Shown here piece by piece: positions 5,865-58,500 of a stretch of DNA of 64,000 nucleotides (the first letter of the stretch is position 1; every line of letters starts with the position of its first letter). Made by a program: the position numbers and the translations under genes. The notes beneath the pieces were generated by a model, which was not told the origin of the DNA, did no database searches, and saw nothing but the letters and a program-made list of their open reading frames with translations. The DNA is from Heptranchias perlo. Lineage: Eukaryota. The stretch covers positions 9,114,001 through 9,178,000 of the forward strand of contig NC_090338.1 of the NCBI RefSeq assembly GCF_035084215.1, given 5' to 3'.

Positions 5865-6152
5865 CATAATAAACCTTGGCTCTGTGATAACACTCTGAAA
5901 TCTGAGTCAGAAGGTCTTGTGTTCAAACGCAATCCAGAGATTTGATACCTAATCTCGGCTTGCACTATAGTGCAATATTGAGGCAGAGCTGCACTGTAGG
6001 TGGTGCTGCCTTTAGGCTGAGACGTTAAACCGAAGCCACGTCTGCCCGCTCTGCTGAATGTAAAAGATCGCTTGGCACTATTGGAAGATGAGCAAGCGAG
6101 TTCTTCTGGTGCCCTGGCCAAAATTTATTCCTCAACTAGAACAAATAAAAAA
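5865..6152 (+). mobile_element. tRNA-derived Deu-domain SINE (SacSINE1/AmnSINE-like), 3' truncated
   Basis: B-box-like gttcaaac, then the Deu-type core gctgcctttaggctgagacgttaaaccgaagcc..taaaagatc..ggcactatt; homologous copies on the - strand at 10490-10880 and 36270-36600. Confidence 0.65.
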
Positions 6153-12539: not shown

Positions 12540-15500
12540 GAGCTACATTCACAAGATCACAAGATAATTGCAGATGAGGATGACCATACGGCCTATCTTA
12601 ATGTATTGATCCAGAAGCACCATGCACTCTCTCTATTGTAGTTTCCAATTGTTTCTTAAGTGATTCCACTACTTTATTGGGGAGTCGATTTCATGCGTTA
12701 ACCACGCCTTGTGTAAGAAAAATAAATCCTGATAGAAATCCAATATTTGCCTTTTATTACTTTTAAACTGTTTCCACCGTCCTGCTCTTGCAACTTAATT
12801 TGAAAAAAAACATTGTGGATTTTCCCTTTCCATACCTGAAATATCACCTCTAAGATACTTACTTTTAAGGCTGCAAAGCTTTAGTTTCTCTGTTGTTTCC
12901 TCATGGCTTAAAGCTCTACCATAAGGGATCAGCCACCTGGCTCTTCTCTGAAGTTCTTCCAGTGATTGCACGCTATCCTTGTGTTTCAGTGAGCAGCATT
13001 GGACACTGTAATCAAGGTGCGGTGCAACTACAGCACTATACATCTTGAACACGACATCCCATGACTGATGTTCCACTGTTTGGCTATTTAGTACAACTTT
13101 TTTTTAATTCATTCATGGGATATAGGCGTCACTGGCAAGGCCAGCATTTATTGCCCATTCCTAATCGCCCTTGAAAAGGTGGTGGTGAGCCGCCTACTTG
13201 AACCGCTGAAATCCGTGTGGTGAAGGTACTTCCACAGTGCTGTTAGGTAGGGAGTTCCAAGATTTTGACCCAGCTATGATGAAAGAACGGCGATATATTT
13301 CCACGTTGGGATGGTGTGTGACTTGGAGGGGAACGTGCTGATGGTGTTGTTCCCATGTGCCGGCTGCCCTTGTCCTTCTAGGTGCTAGAGATGCGGGTTT
13401 GGGAGGTGCTGTCGAAGAAGCCTTGGCGGGTTTCTGCAGTGCATCCTGTGGATGGTACACTGTGCAGCCACGGTGTGCCGTTGGTGAAGGGAGTGAATGT
13501 TTGAGGTGGTAGATGGAGTACCAAACAAGCGGGCTGCTTTGTCCTGGATTGTTTCGAGCTTCTTGAGTGCTGAAGCTGCACTCATCCAGGCAAGTGGAGA
13601 GTATTCCATCACACTCCTGACTTGTGCCTTGTAGATGGTGGAAAGTCTTTGGGGAGTTAGAGGTTGTGTCACTCGCCGCAGAATACCCAGCCTTTGATCT
13701 GGTCTTGTAGCCACAGTATTTATATCGCTGGTCCAGTTAAGTTTCTGGTCAATAATGACCCCCAGGATGTTGATGGTGGGGGATTTGGCAATGGTAATGC
13801 CGTTGAATGTCAAGGGGAGGTGGTTGGACTCTCTTCTGTTGGAGATGGTCATTGCCTGGCACTTGTCTGGCACGAATGTTATTTGCCACTTATCAGCCCA
13901 AGCCTGGATGTTGTCCAGATCTTGCAATATGCGGGCACAGACTGCTTCATTATCTGAGAATGGAACAGAACACTGTGCAATCATCAGCGAACATCCTCAT
14001 TTCTGACCTTATGATGGAGGGAAGGTCATTGATGAAGCAGCTGAAGATGGTTGGGCCTAGGACACTGCCCTGAGGAACTCCTGCAACAATGTCCTGGGGC
14101 TGAGATGATTGGCCTCCAACAACTACTACCATCTTCCTTTGTGCTAGGTATGACTGTAGCCACTGCAGAGTTTTCCCCCTGATTCCCATTGACTTCAATT
14201 TTACTAGGGCTCCTTGGTGTCACACTCAGTCAAATGCTGCCTTGATGTCAAGGGCAGTCACTCTCACCTCACCTCTGGAACTCAGCTCTTTTGTCCATGT
14301 TAGGACCAAGGCTGTAATGAGGCCTGGTGCTGAGTTGTCTTGGAGGAACCCAAACTGGGCATCGGTGAGCAGGTTATGGTGAGTAAGTGCCACTTGATAG
14401 CACTGTCGACGATACCTTCCATCACTTTGCTGATGATTGAGGGTAGACTGATGGGGAAGTAATTGGCAGGATTGGATTTGTCCTGCTTTTTGTGGACAGG
14501 ACATTCCTGGGCAATTTTCCACAATTTCAGGTAGATGCCAGTGTTGTAGCTGTACTGGAACAGTTTGGCTAGAGGCGCAGCTAGTTCTGGAGCACAAGTC
14601 TTCAGCACGACAGCTGGGATGTTGTCGGGGCCCATAGCCTTTGCTGTATCCACTGCACTCAGCCATTTCTTGATATCACGTGGAGTGAATCGAATTGATT
14701 GATGACTGGTTTCTGTGATGGTGGGGATATCGGGAGGAGGCCAAGATGGATCATGCACTCGGCACTTCTGGCTGAAGATGGTTGCAAACGCTACAGCCTT
14801 GTCTTCTGCACTCACTTGCTGGGCTCTGCCATCATTGAGGATGGGGATGTTCACAGAGCCTGCTCCTCCCATTCGTTGTTTAATTGTCCACTACCATTCA
14901 CGACTGGATGTGGCAGGACTGCAGAACTTTGACCTGATTCATTGGTTGTGGATTTGCTAAATCCTGTCTATGGCATGTTGCATCCGCTGTTCAGCATGCG
15001 TGTAGTTCTGTATTGTAGCTTCACCAGTTTGTTACCTAATTTTTAGGTACCCCTGGTGCTGCTCCTGCTTTACTCTTCTACACTCCTCATTGAACCAAGT
15101 TTGATCCCATTGCTTGTTGGTAATAGGAGAGTGAGAAAATGCCAGGCCATGAGGTTACAGATTGTGCTGAAATACAATTCTGCTGCTGCTGATGGCCCAC
15201 AGCGCCACATGGATGCCCAGTTTTGAGATGCTAAATCTATCCCATTTAGCACGGTGTTGATTGTTGCTCTGCATTGGTCGGATATGTTCAGTGTTGAGTC
15301 TACTAAGACTGCGATGTCTCTTTTAGCTTCGTCCTTAAATATTATCTTCCTATTTTCAGTATTTTGCATTTTTTTGAATAATTATTTTCTGCCATCGTCT
15401 ACCACACGCATCTTTTGTTGAACTCATTCTATAATTTCTGAGCTGCTTCCTCTGATTCCACAGCCCCTCCCAGTTTGATGTCAGCAACACATTTAACCAG

Positions 15501-27534: not shown

Positions 27535-29997
27535 ATGGCCTCCTTCATGAATCGCTGCGTGTCACAATGGCAATGTTTATATTTAATAGTCGTATATATT
27601 TCAAATTCAGTTTGTGGGAACATTCGCTATTCAATTTCTGAAGAATTAGAACTTGGTGCCTTTGTTGGGAATATTGCTAACGATCTAAGGTTAGATGTAA
27701 ATCAACTGTCTGCTCGCAGGTTTCGGACTGTAACCGACCATAAAACGCAATACCTAGACGTTAATTTAAACACCGGAGCTTTGTTCATAAAAGAGAAAAT
27801 CGACAGGGAACAGCTTTGTGAACAAAGGCTCACGTGTGTACTGATGTTGGAAGCCGTGATGGAAAATCCTCTAAAGCTATACAGTTTTGAAGTTGAAATT
27901 CTAGACATAAATGACAATCCGCCCGTATTCCAAAAGAGCCAAATGCGTTTGGAAATTTCAGAAAGTGCATCACCGGGAACACGCTTCAGGCTTCAAAACG
28001 CGCATGACCGGGACGCCGGAACTAACAGTGTCCGCACCTACGAAATCAGTCAAAATGAGCACTTCGTTTTAGAATTACGAAGAGAAAGAATAGTTGCTCC
28101 GGAGTTAGTCCTTCAGCGACCTCTCGATCGAGAACAGCAGCCCACTCATCAGTTAACACTGACGGCGATTGATGGAGGCACCCCTCAGAGATCTGGAACC
28201 ACCCTGATCACCATTAATGTATTTGACATAAACGACAATGCACCAGTTTTTGAACAAAGCGTCTATCAAATCACCATTGCAGAAAACGTACCAAAAGATA
28301 CTTTGATTATGAAACTAAATGCACTAGATATGGACGAGGGCCAAAATGGTGAAATAATATATTCTTTTAGCGACCATACTCCCGACAGAGTACGTAATAC
28401 ATTTAGCTTGGATTCGAGAAACGGAGAAATTAGAGTAACTGGAACTGTGGATTTCGAAGAAGCACATGAATATCAGATTTGCGTAGAAGCTAAGGACAGA
28501 GGTCCGGATGCAGCGCCAGTATATTGTGAAGTTCTGCTAAAGATTGCAGATGTTAACGACAACGCCCCTGAAATTATAGTGAGCTCCATGTCCAGTCCAA
28601 TCCCAGAAAACGCTTCCCTGGGGACGGCGGTAGCTCTTTTAAAAGTAACAGACAGAGACTCTGAAGAAAGGGGAGATGTTACCTGCCACATTAGCAAAAA
28701 TACTCCCTTCAAGCTTGATAGTTCTTTTAATAATTACTACACACTGGTCGTCGATGGTGATATAGATCGTGAAGAAGTGTCCGACTATAAGATTAACATT
28801 TCATGTACTGATGCTGGCTCACCCCCGCTCTCCAGCTACAGAACAATCCCAATTGAACTTTCCGATATTAACGACAACACACCATCCTTTATGCAACCTT
28901 CATTCACAATGCATGTGACGGAGAATAATGCTGTTGGCAAGTCCATCGGTTCTGTGCCAGCGTTTGATCCAGATTCAGATCAAAATGCTTACTTGACTTA
29001 CACCATTTTGGATACCTTTATTCATGGCATGCCTACATCCACGTTCACCTCGATCAGTTCAGCCAATGGTGTGATGTTTGCGCAGCGCTCTTTTGATTAT
29101 GAGCAAATCAAAAAATTTCAAGTCCATGTGCAAGTAAAGGATGCTGGATCCCCTCCGCTTAACAGCACTATAACTGTGAATGTGATTATCGTCGATCAGA
29201 ATGATAATGTCCCTGTGATCCTATTGCCCTTGTCAAATAGAGGTTCCTCAGCAGAGGAGACAATGCCCAGATCTGCTGATCCGGGTTATTTAGTTGCTAA
29301 GGTGACAGCCACTGATGCTGATTCTGGTCAAAACGCTCAACTCTACTATCAATTACTTCAACCTACCGATGAAAGTCTGTTTACTGTGAGCCCTGAAACG
29401 GGAGAAATCTGGACCATCCGGCGTTTTGGGATCCAAAGCTCACGAAGGGAAAAAATCGTAATCCTGGTAAGGGATAATGGTAAGCCATCACTTTCATCCA
29501 CAACCACCATCAATTTGACAGTGTTGGATGAAGATACAGAAAATCCTTCAAATGTTGGTATGTTGGCGAACCCTGGACGATGGACATCTGATTTAAGACG
29601 TTATTTAATCATATCTTTTGGCACAATCTCTATCATTTTTCTACTGCCAATTATAATCCTCTCCATAAAGGTCCATAAAGGAAGGAATGCAATGAATGGT
29701 CACAGGTGCTCTTGGACGATACCATTTTCTTTTCTGTGGAGGAATTCGTCGCGTGGAATTGAAAAGGCTAGCATAAATCTCCCAATACCACCGCATTATG
29801 CAGATAACGAGACTGCTTCTGAAACATTTCGCTATGATGTGTGTCAAACTTTGAATTCAGACATGAAAGATTTCATGTTCGTGAAGTTACATGGCCCAAC
29901 CGCACCCACAATTAACATCAAGACTGGCGCATGTATGGCGAGTGTTAATGGAAATGCATCCGATTCTATCATGGCGGTAACGACTGAATCCCACGAG
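27535..29997 (+). CDS. PCDH: Clustered protocadherin variable exon 2
   Basis: ORF 27514-30057, ATG in gaaATGgcc context at 27535; six cadherin repeats, TM YLIISFGTISIIFLLPIIILSI; phase-0 donor GAG|GTGAGA at 29997/29998. Confidence 0.95.
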
Positions 29998-32759
29998 GTG
30001 AGATATATATTGAGGTTCAGCGCGCATATATTCTCCATGAATTTAAGCTGCCCATAATAAATCAGTGGTGTTTTTAAGTAGTTCAGCCTGCAGAGCTCCC
30101 TTTATCGCCATTATCTATTGAACCACTGGGGTTCTGAATGTATGCCACTTCAGAGATCCGGGACAAAGAACATAAATTGTGTCCTTGTACATGTAAGATG
30201 CTCTTTTATATATCAATATGTTCTTTCGTATATCACTAGCCTTCAGTTCTCCCCCCACCAGCCACCACCATCTTTTCGGTTCTCCAGTTATCAGTTCAGT
30301 TATGCCAATTTGGAGGCCTTGGTAGCAAGTCTAGCTTTACTCCCCAAGGTTTAGTAACCTTTCTCATTCCGTTAGGCAACCTTCGGCCTTCGATATCTGT
30401 GAGTAAACTCGTTTTTCGTTCCTTTTCGTTCTTTGCCCGTGTTAGTGTTTTAAAATTGAATATTCATTTGTTTATCTTGTTTGGTTAAAATGCCCCCTAT
30501 TCATGTTCCCTGGCTGATTTCTTTTTTGCATGAGTTGGAAGTTTTTATAGCTGATATGGAGTGATATACTTCCACGGTCGAATTTAAATTGTTGCAGTGC
30601 CTAATTGGATGGGTAGCCTTTTCCTGTATTTTTGGGGCTAATTTGCTGTGCTTATTTCGTAATTGGTTATCTACAATCGGTACACTCGTGGTGGAGATGG
30701 ATCATGCAGTATGTTACTATTTCTCATTTGCCCTTTTTGAGGGTCTTGTCGCTTGCACCTTTGGTTAAGGCTCAACCCCTTTCAGTTGCAGTCTTGTGGC
30801 TCTCTCCAGACATACACTGCCATTTTCACATTTAGCGAAATCTGTTACCTGGTGCTTTCTGCAGGATAACCCAAATATCCCTGTTTCGACATACATGAGT
30901 TTGGATGAGTGCCGTGACTTAGATCCTTTAAAGTTCTGTCACCTCTACCTTTCCTTCAAGAGAAATGTTTCTAGTTTCCCTTTGTTTGCAGCGTTATTAC
31001 AAAGCTGCTTCAATCTTCCCACGCTGGTCATTTTTGCTCCCTCTCCTTCCCTTTGATTACCACCCCCCCAAAAAAAAAATGCTGGAAACGACTTTACTTT
31101 ATGGTATATGCATTTTCCTTAGTACTACAGTATTGCTGAAAATTAAGCTCCATTATAAAAATAGAACAGTTAAAGTTTCAAATTGCGGAGTGCGTGATGA
31201 TGAAATATATGAAGTAGAAAGTCTTAGAACGCACTGCAGGTCCCACATGTATCTCATCGACCTAACAAACAGCTGCCATCAATCATTCTTGATGGCTATA
31301 CCGTTAGTCCATTTTCATGCGCAAGCATTCCTTGCCTTCGAATCTCCGTTGACCTCAGATGGCCGTCATACCTCTTCAGCATCGCAAAACACTGCGTTAA
31401 AAAGGCTACGGTTTTTTGTTCTTGCACAGAACGTTTTTGCTTCAATGGCTCTTAACGCTCTATAAAAACAAGGCCAGTTCAAAGTTGAATGCTGTTCCCT
31501 TATTTGGAGAGTCTCTTTTAGCACATCTATTACACTGCTGGACAGGACACAAAAAATATTTCAATGTAATCGGCCATCCCATGCTCCCTATGACCCCCAA
31601 CCTCTTTCTTTCTGTCCCGTCATCACATCTTTCCTGACTGTTTCGATTTTATACATAGAATTTCGGTCAACATTGTTCTGAAATTTCATCTTTTGTGCTT
31701 TCTAAACTTCAAATATCTGCCTTATATGCTCTTTCTCGTCCCGGTAATCCTACTTTGTTGAAATCAAGATTCATCCTGCTCTAACGTAGTTGTTCCCAAT
31801 AACTCAAAACTGTAGAACTTCTTATTTCCCTCAGTTTTGTTTCTGCATCCACAATTTTCAGTTTTAAAAGCCTAAGTTTGGTTTCAGTAAATTATTACTT
31901 CATGATTTATCCCTTCCTCTCAACTTTGATGGCTTTCTCCAATATGGGCACTGAAAGAAAGAATTATTAAAATCCATTATTGCTAAAAATGCAGCTTCCG
32001 TATTTTCAATACAAAATGAACTCTGTTTTATATCACCTTTATATGTGGATACCTGGCCAGTTCTAAAGGTACTAGTTATAAACAAGTGACTGTTCATAGT
32101 TTAACTGGCACAGCTAAGTTTTTTAGTATATACTTATTAATCTTATAAATTACAATTTGTACGAGTTAGGAACCAATAGAACCAAATGACACGGTCTGCA
32201 TTTGAAGGGTGTGTGTGTGTGGAGGGTGTGGGGGTGGTGGGGGGGCGGTGGGGGTGGTACTCAAAACGAATCTGTGGAAACATTCTTTCAGCGAGCGAGT
32301 GGTAAATCTATGGAGGATGCTTCATAGGGACGTGGAAGCAGAACGTGTTGATTCATTCAAATGCAAATTAACAGATTTATTCAAAAAATAATATTTTGGA
32401 AAACAGTATATGATTAATTCGAAGCGTAACATATGCTAAGTGCAGCATACTTGGGAAGAACATTGACTTTGTAATAAAACTTTCCAGACTGAGGGTTTCC
32501 TCGCCTCATGTCTGAGCCTGTTGTAAACTAATTGATAGAGATTGATTGCCATGATACGTCAACAATTCTATTATTATTGTATCACGTGACTACCAGGATA
32601 GTAGCAGGCGAACTATATGGACCTTGGTCTCTTTTTGTGTAGCAATTCTTATGTTCCTATAGGAACAATCTGGAGAACATATTAATAAGCCCACATTTGA
32701 GCTTTACAATGTTAAACCAAATTGTTAGCACAGATCTGTTTGAGAATATCAAAAGGTTC

Positions 32760-38657: not shown

Positions 38658-41072
38658 ATGGCCGACCTGCTAAATTGCCTGATGCCACAATGGCGATTTA
38701 AAAAAAAATTATACTCCTCTGCATTTCGGTCTCAGTTTATAGAAATATTCGTTGTTCAATCTCTGAAGAATTGGAGCTTGGTGCCTTTGTTGGAAATATT
38801 TCTCAGGACCTGGACTTAGATGTAAGTCAGCTATCCACTGCGTCTGAATACAAGAAGAAGTATGTGGACGTGAACTTAAAAATGGAATATTACTCACAAA
38901 TGAAAAAATAGACAGGGAACAGCTTTTTGCGTACAGCCTCGGCTATGTGTTGCTTTTAGAGGCAGTGATATAAAATCCGCTAAAGGTAGATCGTATTGAA
39001 GTTGAGATTAGCAACATAAATGCCAACTCGCCTGTATTCGAGAGGAATGAATTTTGTTTAGGAATCTTGGAATTTGCCTCGACTGGTGAGCGTTTCCCAC
39101 AAAGAGCGCACATGAGCCGGAAGCCGGGACCAACAGAGTCCATACTTACCAGCTCAGCAAAAATGAACACTTCACTTTGGAACTACAAACGGACGGCGAA
39201 CAAACTGTGACCGCCGAGTTAGTCCTTGAACGACCTCTAGACCGGGAACATCAACCAATCCAGCAGTCAACCTTGACTGCGATTGATGGAGAAACGCCTG
39301 TGAGGTCAGGAACAACCCAGATTATTATTAGCATTTTTAAATATAAGCGACAATAAAACGATTTTCGAACAGAGCATCTATCAAATCGTCATTGCAGAAA
39401 ACCTACCAAAAGGATCTTTAGTGGTAAAGCTAAATGCCGTGGATTTGGACGGTGGACTAAATGGTGTGGTAACCTATTCTTTCAGGGAGTACACTCCAGA
39501 TAAAGTGCAGTGCCCTTTTAGTCTGGACTCCAGATCCGGAGAAATTTAAGTAACTGGCATAGTTGATTTTGAAGAGGAACAGAATTATGAGATTTTCCTA
39601 CAAGCTTAGGACAGAAGCCCAGCCGCTAAGCCAGTATACTCTAAAATTGTTAAAGGTTGCTGACAATAATGATAGCGCACCTGAAGTAAAGATAATATCC
39701 GCATCCAGTTCGATCAGAGCGCACACATTTGGGAAGCACAGTAACTCTTTTAAAAGTAACGGACCTCGAATCAGAAGAGAGGGGAAATGTTAACTGTTAC
39801 GTTGCCAGAAACAGTGCCTTTAAGCTTGATAGCTCCTTTAATAACTACCACAGTGATCACTGATGGCCACCTAGATCGTGAAAAGGTAACTGAGTACAAT
39901 ATTACCATTGTATGTTGGGATGCAGGCTCTACTCCACTCTCAACTCACAAACTCAACTCAGGTGTTAGATATAAACGATAGCGTGCCCGCTTTACGCAGT
40001 CTTAATTTACTACGTGTGTGACAGAAAATAACGATGTTGGTAAGTCTATTGGTTCGGTAACAGCATTTAATCCAGATTTGAGTCAAAATGGCCTTCTTTC
40101 TTATTCCATTCTGGACAGTCTGGTGCATGGCATGCCTGCGCCAACTTTCTTCACAATCATTTCAGCCAATGGTATGATGTTTGCGCAGCGCTCTTTTGAT
40201 TACGAGCAACTGAAAAATGTTCAAGTCTTTCTGGATATTATGGATACTGGATCCCCTCGGCTCAACAGCTACGTAACTGTGAATATGATCATCGTAGATC
40301 AGAATAAAAACGCCCCTGTGATCCTATCGCCCTTGTCAAATAGAGGTTCCGTAGCAGAGGAGACAATGCCCAGATCTGCGGATCCAGGTTACTTGGTTGC
40401 TAAGGTGACAGCGACAGATGCTGATTCTGGTCAGAACGCTAAACTTCACTACCAATTTCTACAGCCCATTGATGAAAGTCTGGGAACGGGACACATCTGG
40501 ACTATCCGCCGCTTTGGGATCATCGATTTGCTCAAAAAAACCTCGTAATTTTGGTGAGGAACAATGGAAAACCTTCACTTTCATCCACAGTCATTATCGA
40601 TTTGTCAGTGTCAGACAGTCATATAGAAACTGCACCCAATGTTTGTATGTTGGGGAACTCTGGACCATGGACACCTGATTTACGCCTTTATTTAATCATA
40701 TTTTTTCCATAATTTCGCTCGTTTTTCTCGCGGTTACTGTCATCTTTACCTTTAAGTTTCACAAAATTGCACATGGAATTAACGGTTATTTTTTGCTCTT
40801 GTGCCAAGCTATTCTGCCATATGTCCAGAGATTCACAAAAAGCTAGTATAAACCTTCCAATGCCACCACATTATACAGGCAACGAGACTCTTCCTCAAAA
40901 ATTGCGCTATGAAGTGCGCCCATCTTCAGATTCAATCATGAATGAATTAATGTATCTAAGCCTAAATGGGTCAACGGCACCCAAGATTCATATGAAGACT
41001 GGCGCATGCGTAGCTGAGGAAAATGGACACAGAACACATTCTAGGATTAACAAAACCACTGAGTTCCCTGAG
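38658..41072 (+). pseudogene. PCDH: Protocadherin variable-exon pseudogene
   Basis: Full-length homology from ATGGCC (38658) to GAG|GTGAGA (41072). Frameshift near the A9 run at 38700-38708, in-frame stops (about 38971 and 39547), small deletions. Residual ORFs 40018-40548 and 40767-41135 match the paralogues. Confidence 0.9.
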
Positions 41073-41194
41073 GTGAGATATGCCTTACGAGTTTATAGTT
41101 CTATGAGCCTATACTCCTCAATCAGTTTAAAGTGACAATGGTAATTTGTGAGCTTATTGAATTACTCCGCCTACACTGTTCAACTAAACTATAA

Positions 41195-41455
41195 TAAGAA
41201 CATAAGAACATAAGAAATTGGAGCAGGAGTAGGCCAATCGGCCCCTCGAGCCTGCTCCGCCATTCAATAAGATCATGGCTGATCTGATCCCAACCACAAA
41301 TCTAAAGAACACAAGAAGTCGGAGCAGGACCCGGCCACATAGCCCCTGGGCCCTCTCCGCCACCCACAGGGCATTGACCGATCCGAACTCAGCTTCATGT
41401 CCAATTTCCTGCCCGCTCCCCATAACCCCTAATTCCCTTTACTTCTAGGAAACTG
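41195..41455 (-). mobile_element. CR1 3' tail fragment with a partial tail duplication
   Basis: (aagaacat)n..ggagcaggagtaggcc, then a second aagaacacaagaagtcggagcagg. Confidence 0.7.
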
Positions 41456-42644
41456 ATATTGGCTGACTACATGGCTTGAATGCATAAATTCATTGATAAC
41501 AAATTATTATTTTGTTAGTTATATAAAGTCTGGATGAAACTGCACGCAATCCTAGTATACCTGTTAGAATCTCAAGAGGTACGATATGTTAACCTTTCTT
41601 GTGCAATCATAAATCATAACATTTTTCTTAACGGGCTACACAGGAAAATAGTAAGATATTTTCTCTGTAGTGTGCTGGCCCAAATATTATGCCTTTCCAG
41701 AGTTGTATATTTACTATCAAGGAGTCGGCACGTTGAAACTTAAACTGTTCCTTTACATTAATGTAACTTGTCTGGAGTTAAACGGCATAAGGTTTATGGC
41801 ATCAAAAAAAAAGATTTATCGGAATTTAAATTTCTACTTGCTTTCATATCTATAACATACAGAAAAACATGCCACAATGTCCACTACTCGTAGGATGATG
41901 TGCTGTCAGGCCGAATACAATGGAATGTTTCATACTTCAACTTATGTTAACATATTATCTTAATATGGACCCTATATACAGGATTTCTAAAAAAATAACA
42001 TTTTTTCAGGCAGGCAATCTTATTAAATTATCCTGCTTCTAAGATCAAAAGTCATTTTTCTTCTCAGGGTATAAAGAGACACTTTACTAAACTTGCATTT
42101 GCATTTTCAAGATGTTGTCAAATTGTTTTTCGGCACATGTGCACAGTAATAATCCAGCCACTTCTAAAGGTGGTGAATATAAATTAGTTTTGCATATTCA
42201 CACATGTTTACTACCACAAATATGTATATTTACGCACGTTTATTTATCTTCTGAATCACTATTTGTACAAGTTACAAAAGATCCTTGGAACTTATTATGG
42301 AGATATCCCCTGTCCTTACTACGTTGAGAAAAATAACTGTATTCGCTTAGGACGATTTGATATAGAACGGTCACTAATTTGTACAAACTGGGTTATATAA
42401 CTAATTCATCAACTAGCATTTGTTTTGGGACTTACGGAAATTTAGATAACGTTAGCTCATCTTTTCTCTTCTTAGATGCTGATTTACTTGCTGTCTATTA
42501 CATTTAAAAAATAACATTTTTATTTCTAATAACAGAAGCATGTACTGTGATAATATACAAATGGATTTCTAGAAATTCGTTTATTCCCCCGTAGATATTG
42601 GTAACAGCTGCTGAGCTTTTTTGGATATTACTCCTGGTTATTAA

Positions 42645-43542
42645 TGTCTAAGGAGCCCTGTTCCATTTTGCTCTGCATATGATTCAAGTATAGTGAAAGC
42701 TGCAGTGTTTCCTAGCAGGAGGGATCAGTGACACTTTGGCGGTCTCTGGCTCCGGATGCAGTTAACAGTAGAGCATTAGAGATGGCCTGGGCATACTTAA
42801 TGTGCCCACCTTGTTATGTCACAGTTAAATAGATAAAATGGTACACGATTATATAAAAAAAGACAGTTGCCTAAGTTATCTCAGTGAAGAAAAGGAGATA
42901 ATCTCCGAAAGCTTGTGATTTTAAAATAAATTTGTTGGACTATAACCTGGTGTTGTAAGATTCCTTACACTGGTTATTAATAGCAGTTCAAAATGACGAA
43001 AGAAATACTTGACACCAGATATCTGACAGTTGTAGTTCACAAATGAGAAAGTGTGGATTATGTGGATTTTTGTGGGTAATTGGCTGATGATTTTACATTT
43101 TTAAGAGTATTTCTTGTTCAAGTTACAAGATACATCTCTGGGTGATTATTTTGTACTCGTCAATTCATTGTTGTTAGTGCGTGGGTTATTTCCCAATTCT
43201 GTTAATCAGTGTGAATATCAGATACTCAAAATCCTTAATCACAATATCTAAATAATACATACGGCAACAGCATAATTATTTTCTTGTTGGCCTTTTTCTT
43301 CACTGAGATAACTTAGGCAACTGTCTTTTTTTATATAATCGTGTACCATTTTATCTATTTAACTGTGACATAACAAGGTGGGCACATTAAGTATGCCCAG
43401 GCCATCTCTAATGCTCTACTGTTAACTGCATCCGGAGCCAGAGACCGCCAAAGTGTCACTGATCCCTCCTGCTAGGAAACACTGCAGCTTTCACTATACT
43501 TGAATCATATGCAGAGCAAAATGGAACAGGGCTCCTTAGACA
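42645..43542. repeat. Perfect 249-bp inverted repeat (arms 42645-42893 and 43294-43542, 400-bp spacer)
   Basis: tgtctaaggagccctg...tcagtgaagaaaa is the reverse complement of ttttcttcactga...cagggctccttagaca; no mismatch seen. Confidence 0.95.
42894..42969 (+). mobile_element. Penelope-like 3' tail (about 76 bp) inside a TSD-flanked insertion
   Basis: ggagataatctccgaaagcttgtg..aataaa..gttggactataacctggtgttgtaagattccttaca; 12-bp direct repeat ctggttattaat at 42634-42645 and 42970-42981. Confidence 0.65.
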
Positions 43543-43544
43543 GA

Positions 43545-45360
43545 GCAACATAGAGCACAGAAGGAGCCCATTTGTCCCAAAATTGGTTGCCAGCTCTTTG
43601 CAAAAGTAATCCAAAATTAATACCATTGCCCTACTCTTTGTAATTTCTACTTGCTTCAAATACTTATCCATTATCTTTAAAAATGCAATATCTGCTTCAA
43701 CCACTCCTAGTTGCCACGCATTCCGTGCTACAACAGTATTCTGTGTAAAGAAACCTCCTCAACCTCTCACCTTTAGTGATTTAAAAAAATTAACCCATCG
43801 GCAGTGACTCTCCAAACCTAGGAAGTAATCTCTTCCTATTCACTATCAAAATGCTTCATAAATTAGAGAGGAAAACACTATTAAATCGCCTGATGGCAAT
43901 CTCTGCTTCAGTGGAAATAGCCCAATATCTCAACTCGCTCTTATAACTATAGTTACCCATCCTTGACACAATCTTGGCGAATCGACGTTGTACGTTCTTT
44001 ATGTCTTTAAAGGCCATTCTGACATAGGTCGCCCAAACTACTGAATTCCAACTGTGAATTAATCAATCTTTTGTACAAATTCATCGTTATTTCCGTGCTC
44101 TCATAAAAGATAGGAGCAGGAGTAGGCCATTCGGCCCCTCGAGCCTGCTCCTCCATTCAATGAAATCATGGCTGATCTGATTTTTACCTCAACACCACTT
44201 TCCCGCCTTTTCCCCATATTCTTTGATTCGCTTGCTGATGAAAAATTTGTCTAACTCAGCCTTGAATGTATTCAATGACTCAACCTCCACAGCTTTTTGG
44301 GGTAAAGAATTCCAAAGATTCACGACCCTCTGGGAGAAGAAATTCCTTCTCATTTCCGTCTTAAATATTCTATGCTGCTGGCCAACTCATGTTTTATCTA
44401 TCTGTACTCACTTTCACGGAATTATGCACTTGAACCCCCACCCGGTTCTCTGTTAATCCGCGCCATTCAACGTATTTCCATTGAATGTATGCTCCTGTTC
44501 CTTGACTTTCCTACAAAAATGTATTACCTTACACTTAGCCACGTTAAATTACATCTGATATCTGGCTGTGCTTTCCACTAACCTGTCTATTCCTGACGTA
44601 ATTTACAGTTCATCTTACTGCTTGTCAAACGTCCTACTTTTGTTTTGTCAGCAATTGTTGAGATGTTGGTCCATATACCCAAGTACAAATCATTTACATG
44701 TAACATAAACCGAAATGGACTTAGCACTGACCCCTGCGTACACAGCTTCCAACCCTTCTTCAGTCTAAGCAATACCCGTTTACGTAATTCTTTGTTTCCT
44801 GTCTGTCAATTAATTTTCTATCATGGTGCTAATTTCCCTCATACCATACGGCTGACTTTTTCTAATAAGGTTCTTGTGAGACATCGTATCAAAAGCCTTC
44901 TGAAAATCTATATGCACTACATCTACTTCATTCCTCTTATCTATCCAATCGGGCACTTCTTCAAAACAACTATTATATTTATTAAACAAGAGTTCTCGAA
45001 ATAGGAGGTATAGTTAATTCTTTAGAAGACCAAAGGAAGCAGGAAAGGGACATTGACAAAATGGGGAATGGGCAAACACGTGGCAGGTGGAATTTAATGT
45101 CAGTAAGCAAAAAACTACATCGGTGATTGTGCTTTGAATGTAAGTAGGCTCAGTGCAGTAGAAGAGCAGAGAGATTTGGGATTACAGATTCACAGGATAC
45201 CTCAGATTGATAAGGCTGTTAAAAATAATGAATCCTTAGCTTTATCACAAAAGGTAGAAAATATAAAAGCCAAAGGATAAAACGTTAATAAGATCACAGT
45301 TGGAGTACTATGGAGCTTTGATTGAATAGAATGCTACCTAGTATGAGGAAATACAAATAA
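43545..45360. mobile_element. Nested and adjacent CR1 fragments (mainly - strand; + strand from about 45000)
   Basis: 44102-44365 nearly identical to 24298-24555; minus ORF QGSVLSPF..ISTIADKTKVG; plus-strand CR1 remnant from 45020. Confidence 0.7.
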
Positions 45361-46784: not shown

Positions 46785-49235
46785 ATGGCCTACTTACGGC
46801 AAATTCTTTATTTGATACTTGTCTACGTTTCACATTCAGTTTATGGGGACGTTCGCTATCCAATTCCTGAAGAATTGCAGGATGGTGCCTTTGTTGGAAA
46901 TATTGCTAAGGACCTGGGGCTAGATGTACGACAGCTGTCCGCTCGCAAGTTTCGGATTGTATCTGAAAATCAAAAGCAATACCTGGGCGTGAATTTTAAC
47001 AACGGAATTCTGTTCATAAATGAGAGAATAGACAGGGAACAGCTTTGCGAACAGACCCTCGCGTGTGTATTGACTTTGGAATCTGTTGTAGAATATCCTC
47101 TTAAACTGTACCGTGTTGAGGTTCAGATTCTCGACATAAATGACAATCCACCCGTATTCCAAAGAAGCGAGAATCGCTTTGAAATATCAGAAATGGCATC
47201 GCCCGGAGCGCGCTTCCCACTTCAGAGCGCGCACGACCCTGACTCCGGAACCAACAGCGTCCGCAACTATCGACTCAGCCCAAGTGAGCATTTTATTTTA
47301 GATCTACAATCAAATAGCGAGCAAATTGTCACGGCAGAGTTAGTCCTACAGCAACCCCTAGACCGAGAGCAGCAAGCCACTCATCGGTTAACATTGACAG
47401 CAATTGACGGAGGCTCCCCGACGAAATCTGGAACCTGCCAGATTATAATAATTGTATCTGATGTAAATGACAATGTACCGGTTTTCGATAAGAACGTGTA
47501 TCGAATTGTCATTGCAGAGAACGTACCGAAAGGTTCTTTGATAGCGAAAATTAATGCTACGGATTTGGACGAAGGTACAAATGGTGAGTTGATATATTCT
47601 CTCAGTGACAACACTGCCGATAGAGTACGTAAACTGTTTAGCATAGAGTCCGAAAACGGAGAGATCAGAATAAATGAAATGGTGGATTTCGAAGAAGCAC
47701 AGAATTATGAGATGACGGTGCAAGCGAAAGACAAAGGGCCTGCGGCAGTGCCCGCGTACTGTAAAGTTCTAGTAAAAATTACTGATGTTAATGATAATGC
47801 TCCCAGAATAATGTTAACTTCTGTGCACAGTTCGATACCAGAGGACGCCTCAGCAGGGACTTTAGTAGCTACTTTGAAAGTAACGGACCGTGATTCCAAA
47901 GAAAGGCAGGTTGTTCATTGTCACGTCTCCAAAAATGTCCCCTTTAAGCTTGATAGCTCTTTTACTAACTATTACACAGTGGTCACCGATGGTGACATAG
48001 ATCGTGAAACGATGCCTGAGTACAACATTACCATTACATGTACAGACACGGGCAAACCCCCGCTTTCCACTAACAAAACCATCTCAGTTCCAATTTCGGA
48101 TGTAAACGACAACGCACCACGGTTTACGCGATCTTCCTTTACTATGTACGTGACGGAAAATAATGCCATTGGTGCCTCTATTGGATTTCTATCAGCGATT
48201 GATCCAGATTTAAATCAAAATGGCCGACTGTCGTATTCCATCCTGGATAGCCTTGTTCATGGCGTGCCTGTGCCCACGTTCGTCTCAATCAATTCCGCCA
48301 GCGGCGTGATGTATGCGCACTGCTCTTTTGATTACGAACAGGTCAATAATTTTCTGGTTTCTGTGCAAGCAAAGGACGCTGGATCCCCTCCGCACAGCAG
48401 CTACGTAACTGTGAATGTGATCATCCTCGATCAGAATGATAATGCCCCTGTGATCCTATCGCCCTTGTCAAATAGAGGCTTCGTAGCAGAAGAGATAATG
48501 CCCAGATCTGCCGATCCAGGTTACTTGGTTGTTAAAGTGACAGCTACAGACGTCGATTCTGGACAGAACGCCCATCTATTTTATCAACTTCGTCAGCCCA
48601 CCGACGAAAGTTTGTTTACAATGGCATCTGGGACGGGAGAAATCTGGACCATCCGCCGCTTTGGGATGAAGGATTCGCTCAAACAGAAACTCGTTGTCGT
48701 GGTCAGAGACAATGGAAAACCTTCACTTTCATCGACAGTCAGTATCAACTTATCAGTGTTGGATATTGATAGAGAAAGTGCATCTAACGTCGCTATGTTG
48801 GGAAACTCTGGACCATGGACGCCTGATGTAAGGCGTTATTTGATCATATCTTTTGGCACAATCTCGTTCGTTTTTCTTGTGGCTATTGCAATCCTCGCCA
48901 TTAAGGTTCAGAAAGGTGCACGTGGAGATCATGGCTACTGTTGCTCCTGCGGCATGCCATTCTGCTTCAAGCGAAAAGATTCGCTGCAAGGAGTTCAAAA
49001 GACCAGTGTAAACTTTCAACTCCCAGCCAATTATACAGATGTGTACGAACGGGAGACGGTCCCTCAAACATTTCACTATGACTTATGTCCAACTTCAAAT
49101 TCACCCATGAATGACTTCATGTTTTTAAAGTTACATGGTCCAGCGGCACCCATGATTAATATCAAAACTGGCTCGTTATTAATGGAACAAAATGGAAAGG
49201 AATCCAATTGTAAGGATACCATTCAATCACACAAG
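46785..49235 (+). CDS. PCDH: Clustered protocadherin variable exon 3
   Basis: ORF 46785-49268; six cadherin repeats, TM YLIISFGTISFVFLVAIAILAI; phase-0 donor AAG|GTGAGG at 49235/49236. Confidence 0.95.
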
Positions 49236-50833
49236 GTGAGGCGTGTAATAAATGTTCAAGTTCCATAATTCCTTGACAACTTAAGATGGTAATGGCAAAT
49301 TGGGGATCTGGTTGAATTGTCTAGTCGTTAATATCCAATTAACTAGTCGAAACCAAACTGATATTGCCAGGTTGCATTTTTTAATCGAACAATACTTAGC
49401 AGTAAAATACATTAATCTAGCAGTTACCGAGGTCCACGATTATTTCTTGTAAATTCCTGGCGATCAGAAATGCATTTTTATTATGAAATAATAACAAGTT
49501 AACGCGTTATCCATTTTCTGTTTAACATATTTTCGTAACATGATTCATCACGTTGAAACTTGAACTATTATGGTAATGTAAATGAGTACATGTTACGCAA
49601 TAATACTAAGTGGGTGTCTGTTAATAGAAGAGCTAGTGCTTACTGTTAAATTGTGTGTGCAGGGACACATACAGGACACTGGGGCTAAGGCAGATATATG
49701 GAGTTAGGTCACAGATGAGCTTATCTCATTGAATGGCGAAACAGGCTCGAGTGGTTAAATGGCCTACTCCTGTTCCTATGTTCCAAAAGCGAGAGTTGTA
49801 ATATTAAAGCAGAGAGAGAGGAAGAGCAGTGCGTTTAACAACCATGTCAATAGTACACAGAAGTCTTTTTGGTGATAGCAGCATATGGATGGAAGGAAAC
49901 GTGTGAAGTGAAAGGAATGATAGAAATTTGACTATACAGCGCCTATAGAAAGGATATGTGCAACAAACCATGGGAAGCCGCAGCACAGAGAATGAACATA
50001 GGCGGGGTCAATATTAATTTGTCCAAACCAGCGTTAATGTGGTAATAAGGGCCTCAAGTACATTAGCGCCCATTAACGCCAACGCTCCGGCCGAACCTTT
50101 TGAAAGGGGCCTACACCTAGATATGACATATGGTAAGTGTAACATACTTTGGAGGAAGGGATGACTTGTATATATGGTTCCCAAAACTTCCCATTGCTGG
50201 ACATTTCCTCACCTCATGTCTGGGTCTGTTGTAGACTAATTGATAGAGATTGATTGCCATGATTGGGCAACAAGTCCATTATTTGTCATTGGACTGCCAG
50301 GATGGTAGAAGGTGAACTAGGTGAACCTTGGTCTTTTTTCGTCCAACAATCCTAATAACAATTTCTACATATCACTGCATGGTCACAGTCTCAGGTTCCT
50401 GCTGTCAGAGTTAGGACCCTGATAGCAATTTTAAGAGACACTTGTGCAGCCTTAGCAGCGGTCATTAAACAGACCTCAGCTGGCAGCTCTGAAACAGCCT
50501 CACAAAATTAATACCCTGATATTCCCGTGGAGCTGGAAAGAGTGCTCCAACTGGCTCCACAAAAATACTGTGAGCAGCTACCAGCTCAGGCTCTTCTCTC
50601 AGCCTTGCCTTCACCCACTTCCCCCAGCTGCCACTGGTATCCCGTTGGCTAACATTTCTGTGGCCCAAAATTGGCGAGCTGCATCAGGAGGCCTGTTTGG
50701 TGTCGGCAGCTCGCCAGTCGGATTGAAATCAGGCTCAGGCCTTAAAATCACATTGCGTCTTCATTCTTCATCGTTGCAACGGGCAGGTGGTTGATGCACT
50801 GGGTGATCTGCCGACCAAACGTTTAAATCCACT

Positions 50834-51573: not shown

Positions 51574-54500
51574 TTTTTTTTATTCTTGCATGGGATGTGG
51601 GCGTCGCTAGCGAGGCCAGCATTTATTGCCCATCCCTAATTGCCCTTGAGAAGGTGGTGGTGAGCCGCCTTCTTCAACCGCTGCAGTCCTTGTGGTGACA
51701 GTTTTCCCACAGTGCTGTTAGGAAGGGAGTTCCAAGATTTTGACCCAGTGACGATGAACGAACGGCGATATATTTCCAAGTCGGAATATGTGTGCGACTT
51801 GGAGGGGAACGTGCAGGTGGCCTTGTTCCCAAGTACCTGCTGCTCTTGTCCTTCTAGGTGGTGGAGGTCGCGGGTTTGGAAGGTGCTGTCGAAGAAGCCT
51901 TGGCGAGTTGCTGCAGTGCATCCTGTGGATGGTACACACTGCAGCCACGATGCGCCGGTGGTGAAAGGAGTGAATGTTTAGGGTGGTGGATACGGTGCCA
52001 ATCAAGCGGGCTGCTTTGTCCTGGATTGTGTCGAGCTTCTTGAATGTTGTTGGAGCTGCACTCATCCAGGCAAGTGGAGAGTATTCCATCACACTCCTGA
52101 CTTGTGCCTTGTAGATGGTGGAAAGGCTTTGTGGAGTCAGGGGGTGAGTCACTCGCCAAAGAATACCCAGCCTCTGACCTGCTCTTGTAGCTACAGTATT
52201 TATATGGCTGGTCCAGTTAAGTTTCTGGTCAATGGTGACTCCCAGGATGTTGATGGTGGGGGATTCGGCGATGGTAATGCCATTGAATGTCAAAGGGAGG
52301 TGGTTAGACACACTCTTGTTGGAGATGGTCATTGCCTGGCACTTGTCTGGTGCGAATGTTACTTGCCACTTATGAGCCCAGGCCTGGATGTTGTCCCGGT
52401 CTTGCTGCATGCGGGCACGGACTGCTTCACCATTTGAGAGGTTGCGAATGGAATTGAACACCGTGTAATCATCAGCGAAAATCCCCATTTCTGACGTTAT
52501 GATGGAGGGAAGGTCATTGATGAAGCAGCAGAAGGTGGTTGGACCTAGGACACTGCCCTGAGAAACTCCTGCAGCAATGCCCTGGGGCTGAGATGATTGG
52601 CCTCAAAAAACCACTACCATCTTCCTTTGTGATAAGTATGACTACAGCCACTGATGATTTTTCCCCCTGATTCCAATTTACTTCAATTTTACTAGGGCTC
52701 CTTGGTGCCACACTCAGCCAAATGCTGCCTTGATGTCAAGGGCAATCACTTTCACCTCACCTCTGGAATTCAGCTCTTTTGCCCATGTTTGGACCAAGGC
52801 TGTAATGAGGTCTGGCAGCAAGTGGTCCTGGCGTAACCCAAACTGAGCAGGTTATTGGTGAGTAAGTGCCGCTTGATAGCACTGTCGATGACACCTTCCA
52901 GCACTTTGCTGATGATTGAGAGTAGATTGATGGGGCGGTAATTGGCCGGATTGGATTTGTCCTGCTTTTTGTGGACAGGACATACCTGGGCAATTTTCCA
53001 CATTGTCGGGTAGATGCCAGTGTTGTAGCTGTACTGGAACAGCTTGGCTAGAGGCGCAGCTAGTTCTGGAGCACAAGTCTTCAGCACTACAGCCGGGATG
53101 TTGTCAGGGCCCATAGCCTTTGCTGTATCCACTGCACTCAGCCGTTTCTTGATATCACGTGGAGTGAATCGAATTGGCTGAAGACTGTCTTCGGTGATGG
53201 TGGGGATATCGGGAGGAGGCCGAGATTGATCATCCACTCGGCACTTCTGGCTGAAGATGGTTGCAAACGCTTCAGCCTTGTCTTTTGCACTCACGTGCTG
53301 GACTCTGCCATCATTGAGAATGGGGATGTTTACAGAGCCTCCTCCTCCCGTTAGTTGTTTCATTGTCCACCACCAATCACGACTGCAGAGCTTTGATCTG
53401 ATCCGTTGGTTGTGGAATCGCTTAGCTCTGTCTATAGCATGTTGCTTGCGCTGTTTAGCATGCATGGAGTCCTGAGTTGTAGCTTCACCAGGTTGGCACC
53501 TCATTTTTCACTCCGCCCGGTGTTGCTCCTGGCATGCTCTTCTGCACTCCTCATTGAAACAGGGTTGATCCCCTGGCTTGTTGGTAATGTTAGAGTGAGG
53601 AATATGCCGGGCCATGAGGTTACAGATTGTGCTGGAATACAATTCTGCTGCTGCTGATGGCCCACAGCGCCTCATGGATGCCCAGTTTTGATCTGCTAGA
53701 TCTGTTCTGAATCTATCCCATTTAGCACGGTGGTAGTGCCACACGATACGTTGGATGGTGTCCTCTGTGCGAAGACGGGACTTCATCTCCACGAGGACTG
53801 TGTGGTGGTCACTCCTACCAATACTCTCATGGACAGATGCATTTGTGACAGGTAGATTGATGATCACGAGGTCAACATTTTTTTCCCTCGTATTGGTTCG
53901 CTCATCACCTGCCCCTGGCCCAGTCTGGCAGCTATGTCCTTCAGGACTCGGCCAGCTCGGTCAGCAGTGATGCGACCGAGCCTCTCTTGGTGATGGACTT
54001 TAAAGCCCCCCACCCAGAGTACATTCTTTGCTCTTTGCTACCTTCAGTGCTTCCTGCAAGTGGTGTGCAACATGGAGGAGGACTGATTCACCATCTGAGG
54101 GAGGGCGGTAGGTGGTAATCAGCAGGAGGTTTCCTTGCCAATGTTTGACCTGATGCCTTGAGATTTCATGGGGTCTGGAGTCAATGTTGAGGACTCCCAG
54201 GGCCACTCCCTCCTGACTGTACATTACTGTACTGCCACCTCTGTTGGGCCTTTCCTGCCGGTGGGACAGGACATTCCCAGGGAAGGTGATGGAGGAGTCT
54301 GGCATGTTGCCTGAAGGGCATGATTCTGTGAGTATGGCTATGTCAGGCTGTTGCTTGACTAGTCTGTGGGACTGCTCTCCTAATTTTGGCACAAGTCCCC
54401 AGATGTTAGTGAGGAGGATTTTGCAGGGTCGACTGGGCTTGGATTGTCTTTGTCGTGTCTGGTGCCTAGTGGTCCGATGCCGGGTGGTCCATCCCGTTTT

Positions 54501-54861
54501 ATTCTTATTCTGACTTTTCGTAGCAAGATTTTAAAACTGAGTGGCTTGCTAGGCCATTTCAGAGGGCGATTAAGAATCAACCACATTATTGTGGGTCTGG
54601 AGTCACTAATAATCCAGAACAGGTAAGGAAAGCAGGTTCCCTTCCCGAAAGGGGGTTAATGAACCAAATGGGTTTTTACGACAATCCGGTCGGCTCACGG
54701 ACACCATTATTGATACTAGCTTTTTTTTATTCCAGAATTTTATTTAATTAATCGAATTTAAATTCGCCAGCTGCCGTCGGAGGATTTGAACTCATAACTC
54801 TAAGATTATTAGTCCAGGTCTCTAGATTTCTAGTCTAGTAACATAAGCACTATGCTACCGT
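51574..54861 (-). mobile_element. Near full-length LINE family B (APE endonuclease + RT) with a tRNA-like 5' head
   Basis: APE motifs ILLTNIWGL, PDIAILTE, SDHHTV; RT ORFs 52770-53504 and 51718-52488 (FADD); reverse tail at 51574; A box 54847-54857 and B box 54782-54791 on the - strand. Confidence 0.9.
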
Positions 54862-55519: not shown

Positions 55520-58500
55520 CGCCTTTCCACCATCTTTAAGGCACAAGTCAGGAGTGTGATGGAATACTCTCCACTTGCCTGAATGAATGCAGCTCCAACA
55601 ACACTCAAGAAGCTCGACACCATCCAAGACAAAGCAACCCGCTTGATTGGCATCCAATCCACCACCCTAAACATTCACGACATTCACCACCGTTGCACTG
55701 TGGCTGCAGTGTGTACCATCCACAGGATGCACTGCAGCAACTCGCCAAGGCTTCTTCGACAGCACCTCGCAAACCCGCGACCTCTACCACCTAGAAGGAC
55801 AAGAGCAGCAGGTACGTGGCAACACCACCACCTGCACGTCCCCCTCCAAGTCACAGACCATCCCTACTTGGAAATATATCGCCGTTCCTTCATCGTCCCT
55901 GGGTCAAAATCCTGGAACTCTCTTCCTAACAGCACTGTGGGAGAACCTTCACCGTTCTCCCTCAGCTGATGAATCAGTCCTCCTCCATGTTGAGCACCAC
56001 TTGGAGGAAGCACTGAGGGTAGCAAGGGCACAAAACGTACTCTAGGTGGGGGACTTCAATGTCCATCACCAAGAGTGGCTCGGTAGCACCACTACTGATC
56101 GAACTGGCCGAATCCTGAAGGACATAGCTGCCAGACTGGGCCTGCGGCAGGTGGTGAGCGAATGAACATGAGGGAAAAACTTACTTGCCCTCGTCCTCAC
56201 CAATCTACCTGTCGCAAATGCATCTGTCGATGACAGTATTGGTAGGAGTGACCACCGCACAGTCCTCGTGGAGACGAAGTCCCGTCTTCGCACTGAGGAC
56301 ACCATCCAATGTGTTGTGTGGCACTACCACCATGCTAAATGGGATAGATTCAGAACAGATCTAGCAGCTCAAAACTGGGCATCCATGAGGCGATGTGGGC
56401 CATCAGCAGCAGCAGCAGAATTGTATTCCAGCACAATCTGTAATCTCATGGTCTGGCATATTCCTCACTCTAACATTACCAACAAGACAGGGGATCAACA
56501 CTGGGTCAATGAGGAGTGTAGAAGAGCATGCCAGGAGCAGCACCAGGCGTATCTAAAAATGAGGTGCCAACCTCGTGAAGCTACAACTCAGGACTACATG
56601 CATGCTAAACAGAGGAAGCAACATGCTATAGGCAGAGCTAAGCGATTCCACAACCAACGGATCAGATCAAAGCTCTGCAGTCCTGCCACATCCAGTCGTG
56701 AATGGTGGTGGACAATTAAACAACTAACGGGAGGAGGATGTTCTGCAAACATCCTCATCCTCAATGATGGCAGATTCCAGCACGTGAGTGCAAAAGACGA
56801 GGCTGAAGCGTTTGCAACCATCTTCAGCCAGAAGTGCCGAGTGGATGATCCATCTCGGCCTCCTCCCGATCTCCCCACCATCACAGAAGCCAGTCTTCAG
56901 CCAATTCGATTCACTCCATGTGATATCAAGAAACGGCTGAGTGCACTGGATGCAGTAAAGGCTAGGGGCCCCGACACCATCCCAGCTCTAGTGCTGAAGA
57001 CTTGTGCTCCAGAACTAGCTGCGCCTCTAGCCAAGCTGCTCCAGTGCAGCTACAACAATGGCATCGACCCGACAATGTGGAAAATTGCCCAGGTATGTCC
57101 TGTCCACATAAAGCAGGACAAATCCGATCCAGCCAATTACTGCCCCATCAGTCTACTCTCAATCATCAGCAAAGTGATGGTAGGTGTCATCGACAGTGCT
57201 ATCAAGCGGCACCTACTCACCAATAACCTGCTCAGCGATACTCAGTTTGTGTTCCGCCAGGACCACTCGATTCGAGACCTCATTACAGCCTTTGTCCAAA
57301 CATGGACAAAAGAACTGAATTCCAGAGGTGAGGTGACCGAGTGTGGCACCAAGAAGCCCGAGTAAAATTGAAGTCAATGGGAATCAGGGGGAAAAATCTC
57401 CAGTCGCTGGAGTCATACCTAGCACAAAGGAAGATGTTAGTGGTTGTTGGAGGCCAATCATCTCAGCCCCAGGGCATTGCTGTAGAAGTTCCTCAGGGCA
57501 GTGTCCTAGGCCCAATCATATTCAGCTGCTTCATCAATGACCTTCCCTCCATCATAAGGTCAGAAATGGGGATGTTCTCTGATGATTGCACAGTGTTCAG
57601 TTCCATTCGCAACTCCTCAAATAATAAAACAGTCCGAGCCCGCATGCAGCAAGACCTGGACAACATCCAGGCTTGGGCTCATAAGTGGCAAGTAACATTC
57701 GTGCCAGACAAGTGCCAGGCAATAACCATCTCCAGAAAGAAAGAGTCTAACCACCTCCCCTTGACATTCAACGGCATTACCATCACCGAATCCCCCACCA
57801 TCAACATCCTGGGGGTCACCATTGACCAGAAACTTAACTGGACCAGCCATATAAATACTGTGGCTACGAGAGCAGGTCAGAGGCTGGGTATTCTGTGGCG
57901 AGTGACTCACCTCCTGACTCCCCAAAGCCTTTCCACCATCTACAAGGCACAAGTCAGGAGTGTGATGGAATACTCTCCACTTGCTTGGACGAGTGCAGCT
58001 CCAACAACACTCAAGAATCTCGACACCATCCAAGATAAAGCAGCCCTCTTGATTGGCACCGAATCCACCACTCTAAACATTCACTCCCTTCAGCACCGGT
58101 GCACAGTGGCTGCAGTGTGTACCATCCACAGGATGCACTGCAGCAACTCGCCAAGGCTTCTTCGACAGCACCTCCCAAACCCGCGACCTCTACCACCTAG
58201 AAGGACAAGAGCAGCAGGTACATGGAAACAACACCACCTGCACATTCCCCTCCAAGTCACACACCATCCCGACTTGGAAATATATCGCTGTTCCTTCATC
58301 GTCGCTGGGTCAAAATCCTGGAACTCCCTTCCTAACAGCACTGTGGGAGAACCGTCATCACACGGACTGCAGCGGTTCAAGAAGGCGGCTCACCACCACC
58401 TTCTCAAGGGCAATTAGGGATGGGCAATAAATGCCGGCCTCGCCAGCGACGCCCACATCCCACGAACGAATAAAAAAAAAACATGGACTGCAGCGGTTCA

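Follow-up and report, generated by a model that had tools for sequence, protein, structure and literature searches.

The closest described counterparts of the insertion analysed here come from R2 and L1. Among the 5′ junctions made by R2 in PRINT, one named class is attributed to snap-back synthesis on the cDNA or on nearby rDNA (PMC11371274, PMC11204384). In tumours, 22 templated insertions were reported among ~3,600 solo-L1 insertions, with templates that were typically <250 bp and lay within 15 bp of the site (bioRxiv 10.1101/2024.08.27.596794). Work on L1 in cells added three further templated cases together with foldbacks, and proposed resection and cDNA self-annealing (PMC11702581).

Penelope-like elements (PLEs; background in PMC6155905) commonly carry an inverted 5′ copy of themselves, which has been interpreted as the product of self-priming with an antisense template (PMC8557442, PMC3846280), and the origin of their tandem and inverted structures has been described as undefined (PMC8557442). 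For the anole PLE, reverse transcription was reported to start internally, without primer homology, at AT-rich cuts and on uncleaved RNA (PMC11167929). The minimal hammerhead ribozymes of metazoan PLEs have a CUGANGA core, one extra base before stem II, G10.1-C11.1, palindromic positions 15.2-16.2 and a covarying stem II (PMC4209133).

Here we describe an insertion that we read, with a probability of roughly 60%, as a polymorphic PLE-type retroelement insertion with a snap-back 5′ junction. By analogy it appears to work like the R2 snap-back junction, a junction class already known from R2 and L1. A preliminary description of this DNA had proposed a retro-insertion flanked by a target-site duplication (TSD) and containing an exact inverted copy of 43294-43541, and the structure below bears this out; the R2 and L1 precedents, as well as the twin-priming alternative weighed below, were absent from it.

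Structure and setting of the insertion

The window, meaning the whole 64,000-nt stretch that was analysed, is a vertebrate clustered-protocadherin (Pcdh) locus, and its repeats give the impression of a cartilaginous fish. Single-exon cadherin ORFs lie on its plus strand at 1266-3647, 27571-30012, 46785-49265 and from 63069. A protocadherin variable exon that is frameshifted and broken across three reading frames occupies 38708-41093 on the plus strand, ~1.5 kb upstream of the insertion, which is located between this broken exon and the intact exon at 46785-49265. The ATG of the latter (46785), the next Pcdh start, is 3,243 bp from the far arm. Contig evidence was taken from four public sequencing runs of one sample in one study, possibly the source of the assembly, which contain 0.93 of the sampled words. 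The features of the insertion are as follows.

42634..42645, plus strand: left TSD copy, 12 bp; its last T doubles as the arm's first base (1-nt microhomology), and a contig ends here in 4/4 runs
42646..42893, minus strand: inverted copy of host 43294-43541, 248 nt, no mismatch; depth flat at 9.5-12.4 across 42700-42849
42892..42895, plus strand: inner junction AAGG, common to the reversed donor (43291-43294) and the element; its A run is one base shorter than the donor's; the family sequence upstream is known from loose ends before 42892
42894..42969, plus strand: 5′-truncated 3′ end of a high-copy PLE-like element, stopping at the family's usual 3′ boundary
42894..42918, plus strand: 3′ part of a putative minimal type-I hammerhead, by comparison of its features with PMC4209133 (stem II 42894-42906, GAAA 42907-42910, palindromic GC, UU, stem I 3′ arm 42915-42918); predicted cleavage after 42914; the core CUGANGA and the stem I 5′ arm are absent at the locus
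42970..42981, plus strand: right TSD copy
42982..43293, plus strand: unique host spacer, 312 nt, with flat depth; part of the loop of the inferred fold-back
43294..43542, plus strand: host donor of the inverted copy; a 591-nt contig ends at the repeat's last base in 4/4 runs

Sequence comparison showed that the 12-mer at 42634-42645 is identical to that at 42970-42981 and that the identity ends there, extendable on neither side; the chance of such a 12-mer at a fixed place is ~2e-7. Nine of its 12 positions are A or T. Between the two copies are 248 nt of arm (42646-42893) followed by 76 nt of tail (42894-42969). The arm equals the reverse complement of 43294-43541 over 248 nt with 0 mismatches, or 249 nt if the T common to 42645 and 43542 is counted, and in the predicted fold all 249 arm pairs form. 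With thresholds of ≥95% identity and E ≤ 1e-20, the window has no inverted pair other than these arms, which are separated by 400 nt. The donor had been placed 325 bp away; its inverted orientation stands, and its start lies 312 bp past the right TSD.

At the outer junction the microhomology is 1 nt. At the inner junction, GG follows a run of four A in the insertion but of five A in the reversed donor, so that the microhomology is 2 nt if exact, or 4 nt with a one-base slip. The microhomology claimed in the preliminary description is therefore present in imperfect form.

Other sequences in the window were noted in passing. A 6-mer is common to the target site (42633-42638) and the tail (42946-42951) and has 10 plus-strand occurrences in the window; it may reflect an endonuclease preference for tail-like DNA, or chance. 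Two related interspersed repeats, at 41185-41354 and 44097-44192, are 87% alike over 91 nt, the first starting with a short tandem; they resemble SINE or LINE ends. Decayed LINE-like copies with similar ORF fragments, all of one family and on both strands, are found at 6861-7997, 13194-14890, 51718-54530 and 56172-58417.

The tail family and its ribozyme

That the 76-bp piece is multicopy and PLE-like was confirmed. Each run yielded 5,750-5,977 records matching the region, with nearly all depth on 42894-42969; the summed depth over 42900-42949 was in the millions, against ~10 on the arm and spacer, depth being no measure of copy number. In each run, 183-206 contigs exit the element at 42969 into unrelated sequence, and hence this copy ends where many family members end. 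No second copy of the tail was found within the window. A 26-nt pattern from the tail gave 0 matches in viral contigs, and no long family copy was found there. The single match to a 20-nt pattern, in metagenome contig L001, was dismissed as chance, as the contig, of 53% GC, had only those 20 nt in common.

Loose ends before 42892 (64-69 per run) read a TCAC arm and then CTGACG. Together with the letters of the window they give a core CUGACGA, one extra A, stem II GGAGA/TCTCC and GAAA, followed further downstream by a palindromic GC, UU and a GTGA that pairs with TCAC as a 4-bp stem I; this hammerhead was read by eye, from loose ends with a consensus agreement of 0.60-0.74. From the loose ends before 42903 (22-25 per run), a further form of stem II can be deduced that has G-C in place of an A-U pair. 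A minimal hammerhead near the 3′ end of insertions is thus seen at the family level. The insertion itself is 5′-truncated, has a fixed internal 3′ end without poly(A), and is bounded by a short TSD at an AT-rich site. The AATAAA pointed out earlier is indeed present, but it is internal to the tail and no poly(A) follows it. From these features we assign the tail, by its sequence, to a putative PLE-type family; membership rests on the ribozyme and the end anatomy, and an ORF of the family, for which a telomerase-like reverse transcriptase and a GIY-YIG endonuclease would be expected, was not found in the viral and metagenome contigs.

Variation among family members was also observed. At 42931 this copy has T, where A accounts for about two thirds of the summed family depth, and at 42932 C accounts for about a quarter; this variation points to subfamilies. 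In other copies the last 35 nt (42935-42969) are tandemly repeated, with 1-3 extra letters at some joints. Joints returning 35 nt from 42969 were found in 3-5 contigs per run, a length that matches 30-40-bp PLE tails in size, and a second 3′ boundary near 42934 was not among the rows listed. These repeats may be the PLE tail, or may have arisen when the family inserted into a tail of its own.

The preliminary description had also seen a hammerhead core at the junction and had linked the template switch to the ribozyme. The GGAGA/TCTCC stem and GAAA do belong to the element. However, the copy is truncated just 5′ of stem II and has lost the real family core, while the TGANGA-like letters at the junction lie in the copied arm, which is host DNA; they have G in place of C3, and stem II is preceded by two surplus A. 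In the anole PLE ribozyme, C3G abolishes cleavage (PMC11167929). An Rfam scan of 41000-45000 gave three matches with E of 2.8-9.2, none of them a hammerhead, and the z-score of the junction fold was −0.92. An active hammerhead at this locus was ruled out by the G at C3, the two extra A, the donor-derived letters and the lack of an Rfam match. Nor does cleavage explain the switch, because the switch lies ~22 nt upstream of the predicted cleavage site. The product is inert both as an element and as a ribozyme.

Insertion and empty alleles in the sequenced sample

Contigs of the four runs were compared with the window over 41800-43290, the right arm and outer flank being judged via the left arm. 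In 4/4 runs the left-flank contig ended exactly at 42645. A 591-nt contig, also present in 4/4 runs, comprised 18 unplaced letters, 42970-43290 and the entire arm, and ended at the arm's last base; over 42970-43290 it differed from the window at 2 of 321 letters.

Unitigs (k=31) were simulated for three genotypes, both with and without the links that lead into the high-copy tail. An empty-only genotype gave a single unbroken contig, and an insertion-only genotype gave a left contig end at 42674 and a contig of 573 nt. Only the genotype carrying both insertion and empty alleles, with tail links dropped, reproduced the end at 42645 and the length of 591 nt. For this genotype the predicted depth ratio was 1.18, compared with observed values of 1.14, 1.37, 1.25 and 1.21. 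The extra depth at 42600-42699 was given no weight, its division between a junction contig and a flank contig being under-determined.

Because the graph was reproduced only when both alleles were present, the modelling indicates that the sample most likely contains both and that the insertion is polymorphic. The matching simulation assumes that tail links were pruned, neither tail junction being among the contig pieces listed, and it concerns contigs rather than reads; a near-identical paralog would yield an identical graph. The empty allele anticipated by the preliminary description is thus supported by the contig breaks and the graph simulation, and the only other version of the locus seen is fully empty. 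The same description had taken zero mismatches between the arms to mean a very recent event. Since zero mismatches still permit a divergence of up to 1.2% (95%), arm identity sets no more than this bound, and polymorphism is the better sign of youth.

Origin of the 5′ junction

The element's sense strand is the plus strand, and its cDNA would be attached to the bottom strand at the right. Continued from its 3′ end, this cDNA equals plus-strand 43294-43542; therefore the template would be the bottom strand of the same arm, folded back across a 400-nt loop. This supports the earlier statement that a continuing cDNA needs the minus strand as template. Snap-back junctions are recognised by sequence that adjoins the element's 5′ end and derives from the other strand of target DNA close by, as is the case here. 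A primer that copied its own strand would give the orientation observed, and of the two microhomologies the inner (2-4 nt) is longer than the outer (1 nt).

We propose the following course of events. A PLE enzyme supplied in trans would have cut both strands 12 nt apart at the AT-rich site, the spacing being that of the observed TSD. The 3′ end of the bottom strand would have primed reverse transcription at the family's usual internal start, where the copy ends (42969), and synthesis on uncleaved RNA would have halted ~78 nt on, at a position that lies 2 nt beyond hammerhead stem II. Once at least 561 nt of top strand on the right side had been resected or displaced, 2-4 nt of the cDNA 3′ end would have annealed at 43291-43295 of the strand to which the cDNA was attached, and slipped by one base. 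From there, 248 nt leading away from the insertion would have been copied by a host polymerase or by the reverse transcriptase (RT). Finally, the new end would have been released and joined to the untouched left end via one T:A pair, with fill-in fixing the TSD.

Several observations bear on this course. Other family copies fold back at 42894: loose ends of this kind occur in at least one contig of X1 and at least two contigs of X2, with none listed for X3 and X4, and they are the reverse complement of 42907-42921, exact in X2 and matching at 14/15 letters in X1. Judged by these sequences, some family copies may be palindromes centred on hammerhead stem II, although library artefacts or twin-priming joins would look alike. 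In a DNA fold, stem II forms at the 3′ end of the cDNA. The inner microhomology is at chance level, with three CCTT sites in 42982-43600, one of them nearer than the donor. The donor also resembles the lost half of the ribozyme, with 3 to 21 of 618 local sites scoring as well or better (top 0.5-3.4%, depending on gap cost); this likeness, and that between the arm end and the reverse-transcription start discussed below, depend on scoring, were chosen post hoc and serve as hints only. When the minus strand of 42890-43310 was folded as DNA, no pre-formed structure placed the donor next to the cDNA end (z 0.34). For polymerase-theta-type repair, 248 nt would be a long tract, which counts against snap-back synthesis. 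One event cannot show the direction of synthesis.

The strongest competitor, which we nevertheless consider unlikely, is twin priming. Here a second RT subunit would start at 43542 and extend the 3′ end of the top strand, its template being either the displaced top strand or nascent Pcdh pre-mRNA; both newly made strands would then be joined at AAGG/CCTT. Cutting and extension of both strands, with no need for primer homology at the start, are known from the anole PLE protein (PMC11167929), and the TSD is intact, as in L1 twin priming (PMC11702581). All Pcdh exons are on the plus strand. Furthermore, the last 8 nt of the element can be aligned, with a gap of 2 nt, to the arm's far end, and this match is equalled by 5 to 16 of 2,018 local sites (top 0.25-0.8%). 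For 10-15-mers, however, it is only in the top 2-7% (40 to 141 of 2,018 sites), and it was picked post hoc from ~8 comparisons; the anole protein, moreover, needed ~172 nt of its own RNA (PMC11167929). As a separate observation, likewise chosen post hoc, a perfect 6-nt match to the 3′ end of the cDNA occurs just once in 42-45 kb, within 43532-43542. The preliminary description had left the template open between a DNA strand and an antisense transcript. The orientation would also be explained if the RT had left the element RNA at the ribozyme and continued on a transcript antisense to the flank; RT switches to a different RNA are documented in R2 and L1 (PMC11371274, PMC11702581), and antisense templates have been proposed for PLEs (PMC8557442, PMC3846280). 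We nonetheless judge it improbable: the switch is away from the cleavage site, PLE insertion in vitro used uncleaved RNA (PMC11167929), no antisense RNA has been shown, and DNA gives the simpler account of a donor 312 bp from the nick.

The remaining explanations dispense with a single composite event. Templated inverted insertions form at any break (PMC11724301), and a later, unrelated break at an ordinary short PLE insertion might have been repaired with the inverted flank, leaving it at the 5′ end of that insertion. Yet the arm directly adjoins an intact left TSD and ends at bases common to the element, and the other version of the locus that was seen is fully empty, which makes two events very improbable. 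The least probable readings are that the structure arose in sequencing or assembly, or that it is a MITE whose terminal inverted repeats are long. Fold-back chimeras do occur in libraries, and the four runs represent one sample that may have been the assembly source; an empty-only genome nevertheless predicts an unbroken contig, whereas 4/4 runs break at both ends of the outer junction. As for a MITE, which the preliminary description had raised against its own reading, the flat depth of the arms is not that of MITE ends, the TSD flanks arm plus tail, and the second TSD copy lies between the arms.

Extending snap-back synthesis from this locus to PLEs generally is doubtful and is offered tentatively. 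The head-to-head inverted 5′ ends of PLEs might arise by DNA-level fold-back of target-linked cDNA, with stem II as a self-priming hairpin at which the RT tends to stop; a stop that overshoots the hairpin, here by 2 nt, would lead to folding onto the host flank. If this were true, a very abundant and still polymorphic family would keep seeding long perfect inverted repeats of unique DNA. An inverted segment of host flank separates cDNA snap-back from twin priming, and cases such as this one discriminate between them because element RNA cannot template host flank. With a high-copy family that has polymorphic insertions, junction counting in one long-read genome could test the origin. The allele also adds a perfect 249-bp inverted repeat within the protocadherin cluster, which in the predicted fold would pair fully in plus-strand pre-mRNA crossing it and could make this pre-mRNA double-stranded. 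As the junction class is known from R2 and L1, this single event is a modest finding and a useful lead on PLE inverted ends.

Compared with the minimal type-I hammerheads of metazoan PLEs, the tail family matches all listed marks, whereas the copy at 42894 lacks the core and the stem I 5′ arm and cannot be a ribozyme (PMC4209133). Like EN+ PLEs (PMC8557442, PMC3846280, PMC11167929), it has a head-to-head inverted 5′ segment and an AT-rich target, a TSD of similar size (8-10 bp in rotifer, 12 bp here) and a fixed internal 3′ end shortly past the hammerhead, and the 35-nt terminal unit repeated in some copies is comparable in size to their 30-40-bp tails. In those elements, however, the inverted piece is element sequence, whereas here it is host flank, which element RNA cannot template. 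A PLE insertion with inverted host flank was not found in the literature searched, at the level of listings and with a minor part of subscription papers covered.

The L1 templated insertions are alike in that a retro-insertion duplicates nearby genomic DNA. Their donors are typically within 15 bp, compared with 312 bp here, and the L1 cases are somatic; the supplementary figures of those reports may hold the same geometry. In R2 snap-back, as proposed here, formation of the 5′ junction appears to be preceded by DNA-templated synthesis on the opposite strand, for which the cDNA 3′ end serves as primer (PMC11371274, PMC11204384). In the R2 reports the templates are mostly the cDNA itself and sometimes nearby target DNA. 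Those cases involve engineered proteins, human cells and rDNA, whereas the present case appears to be a natural, inherited PLE-type insertion with a 12-bp TSD, in which the copied flank is fully resolved.
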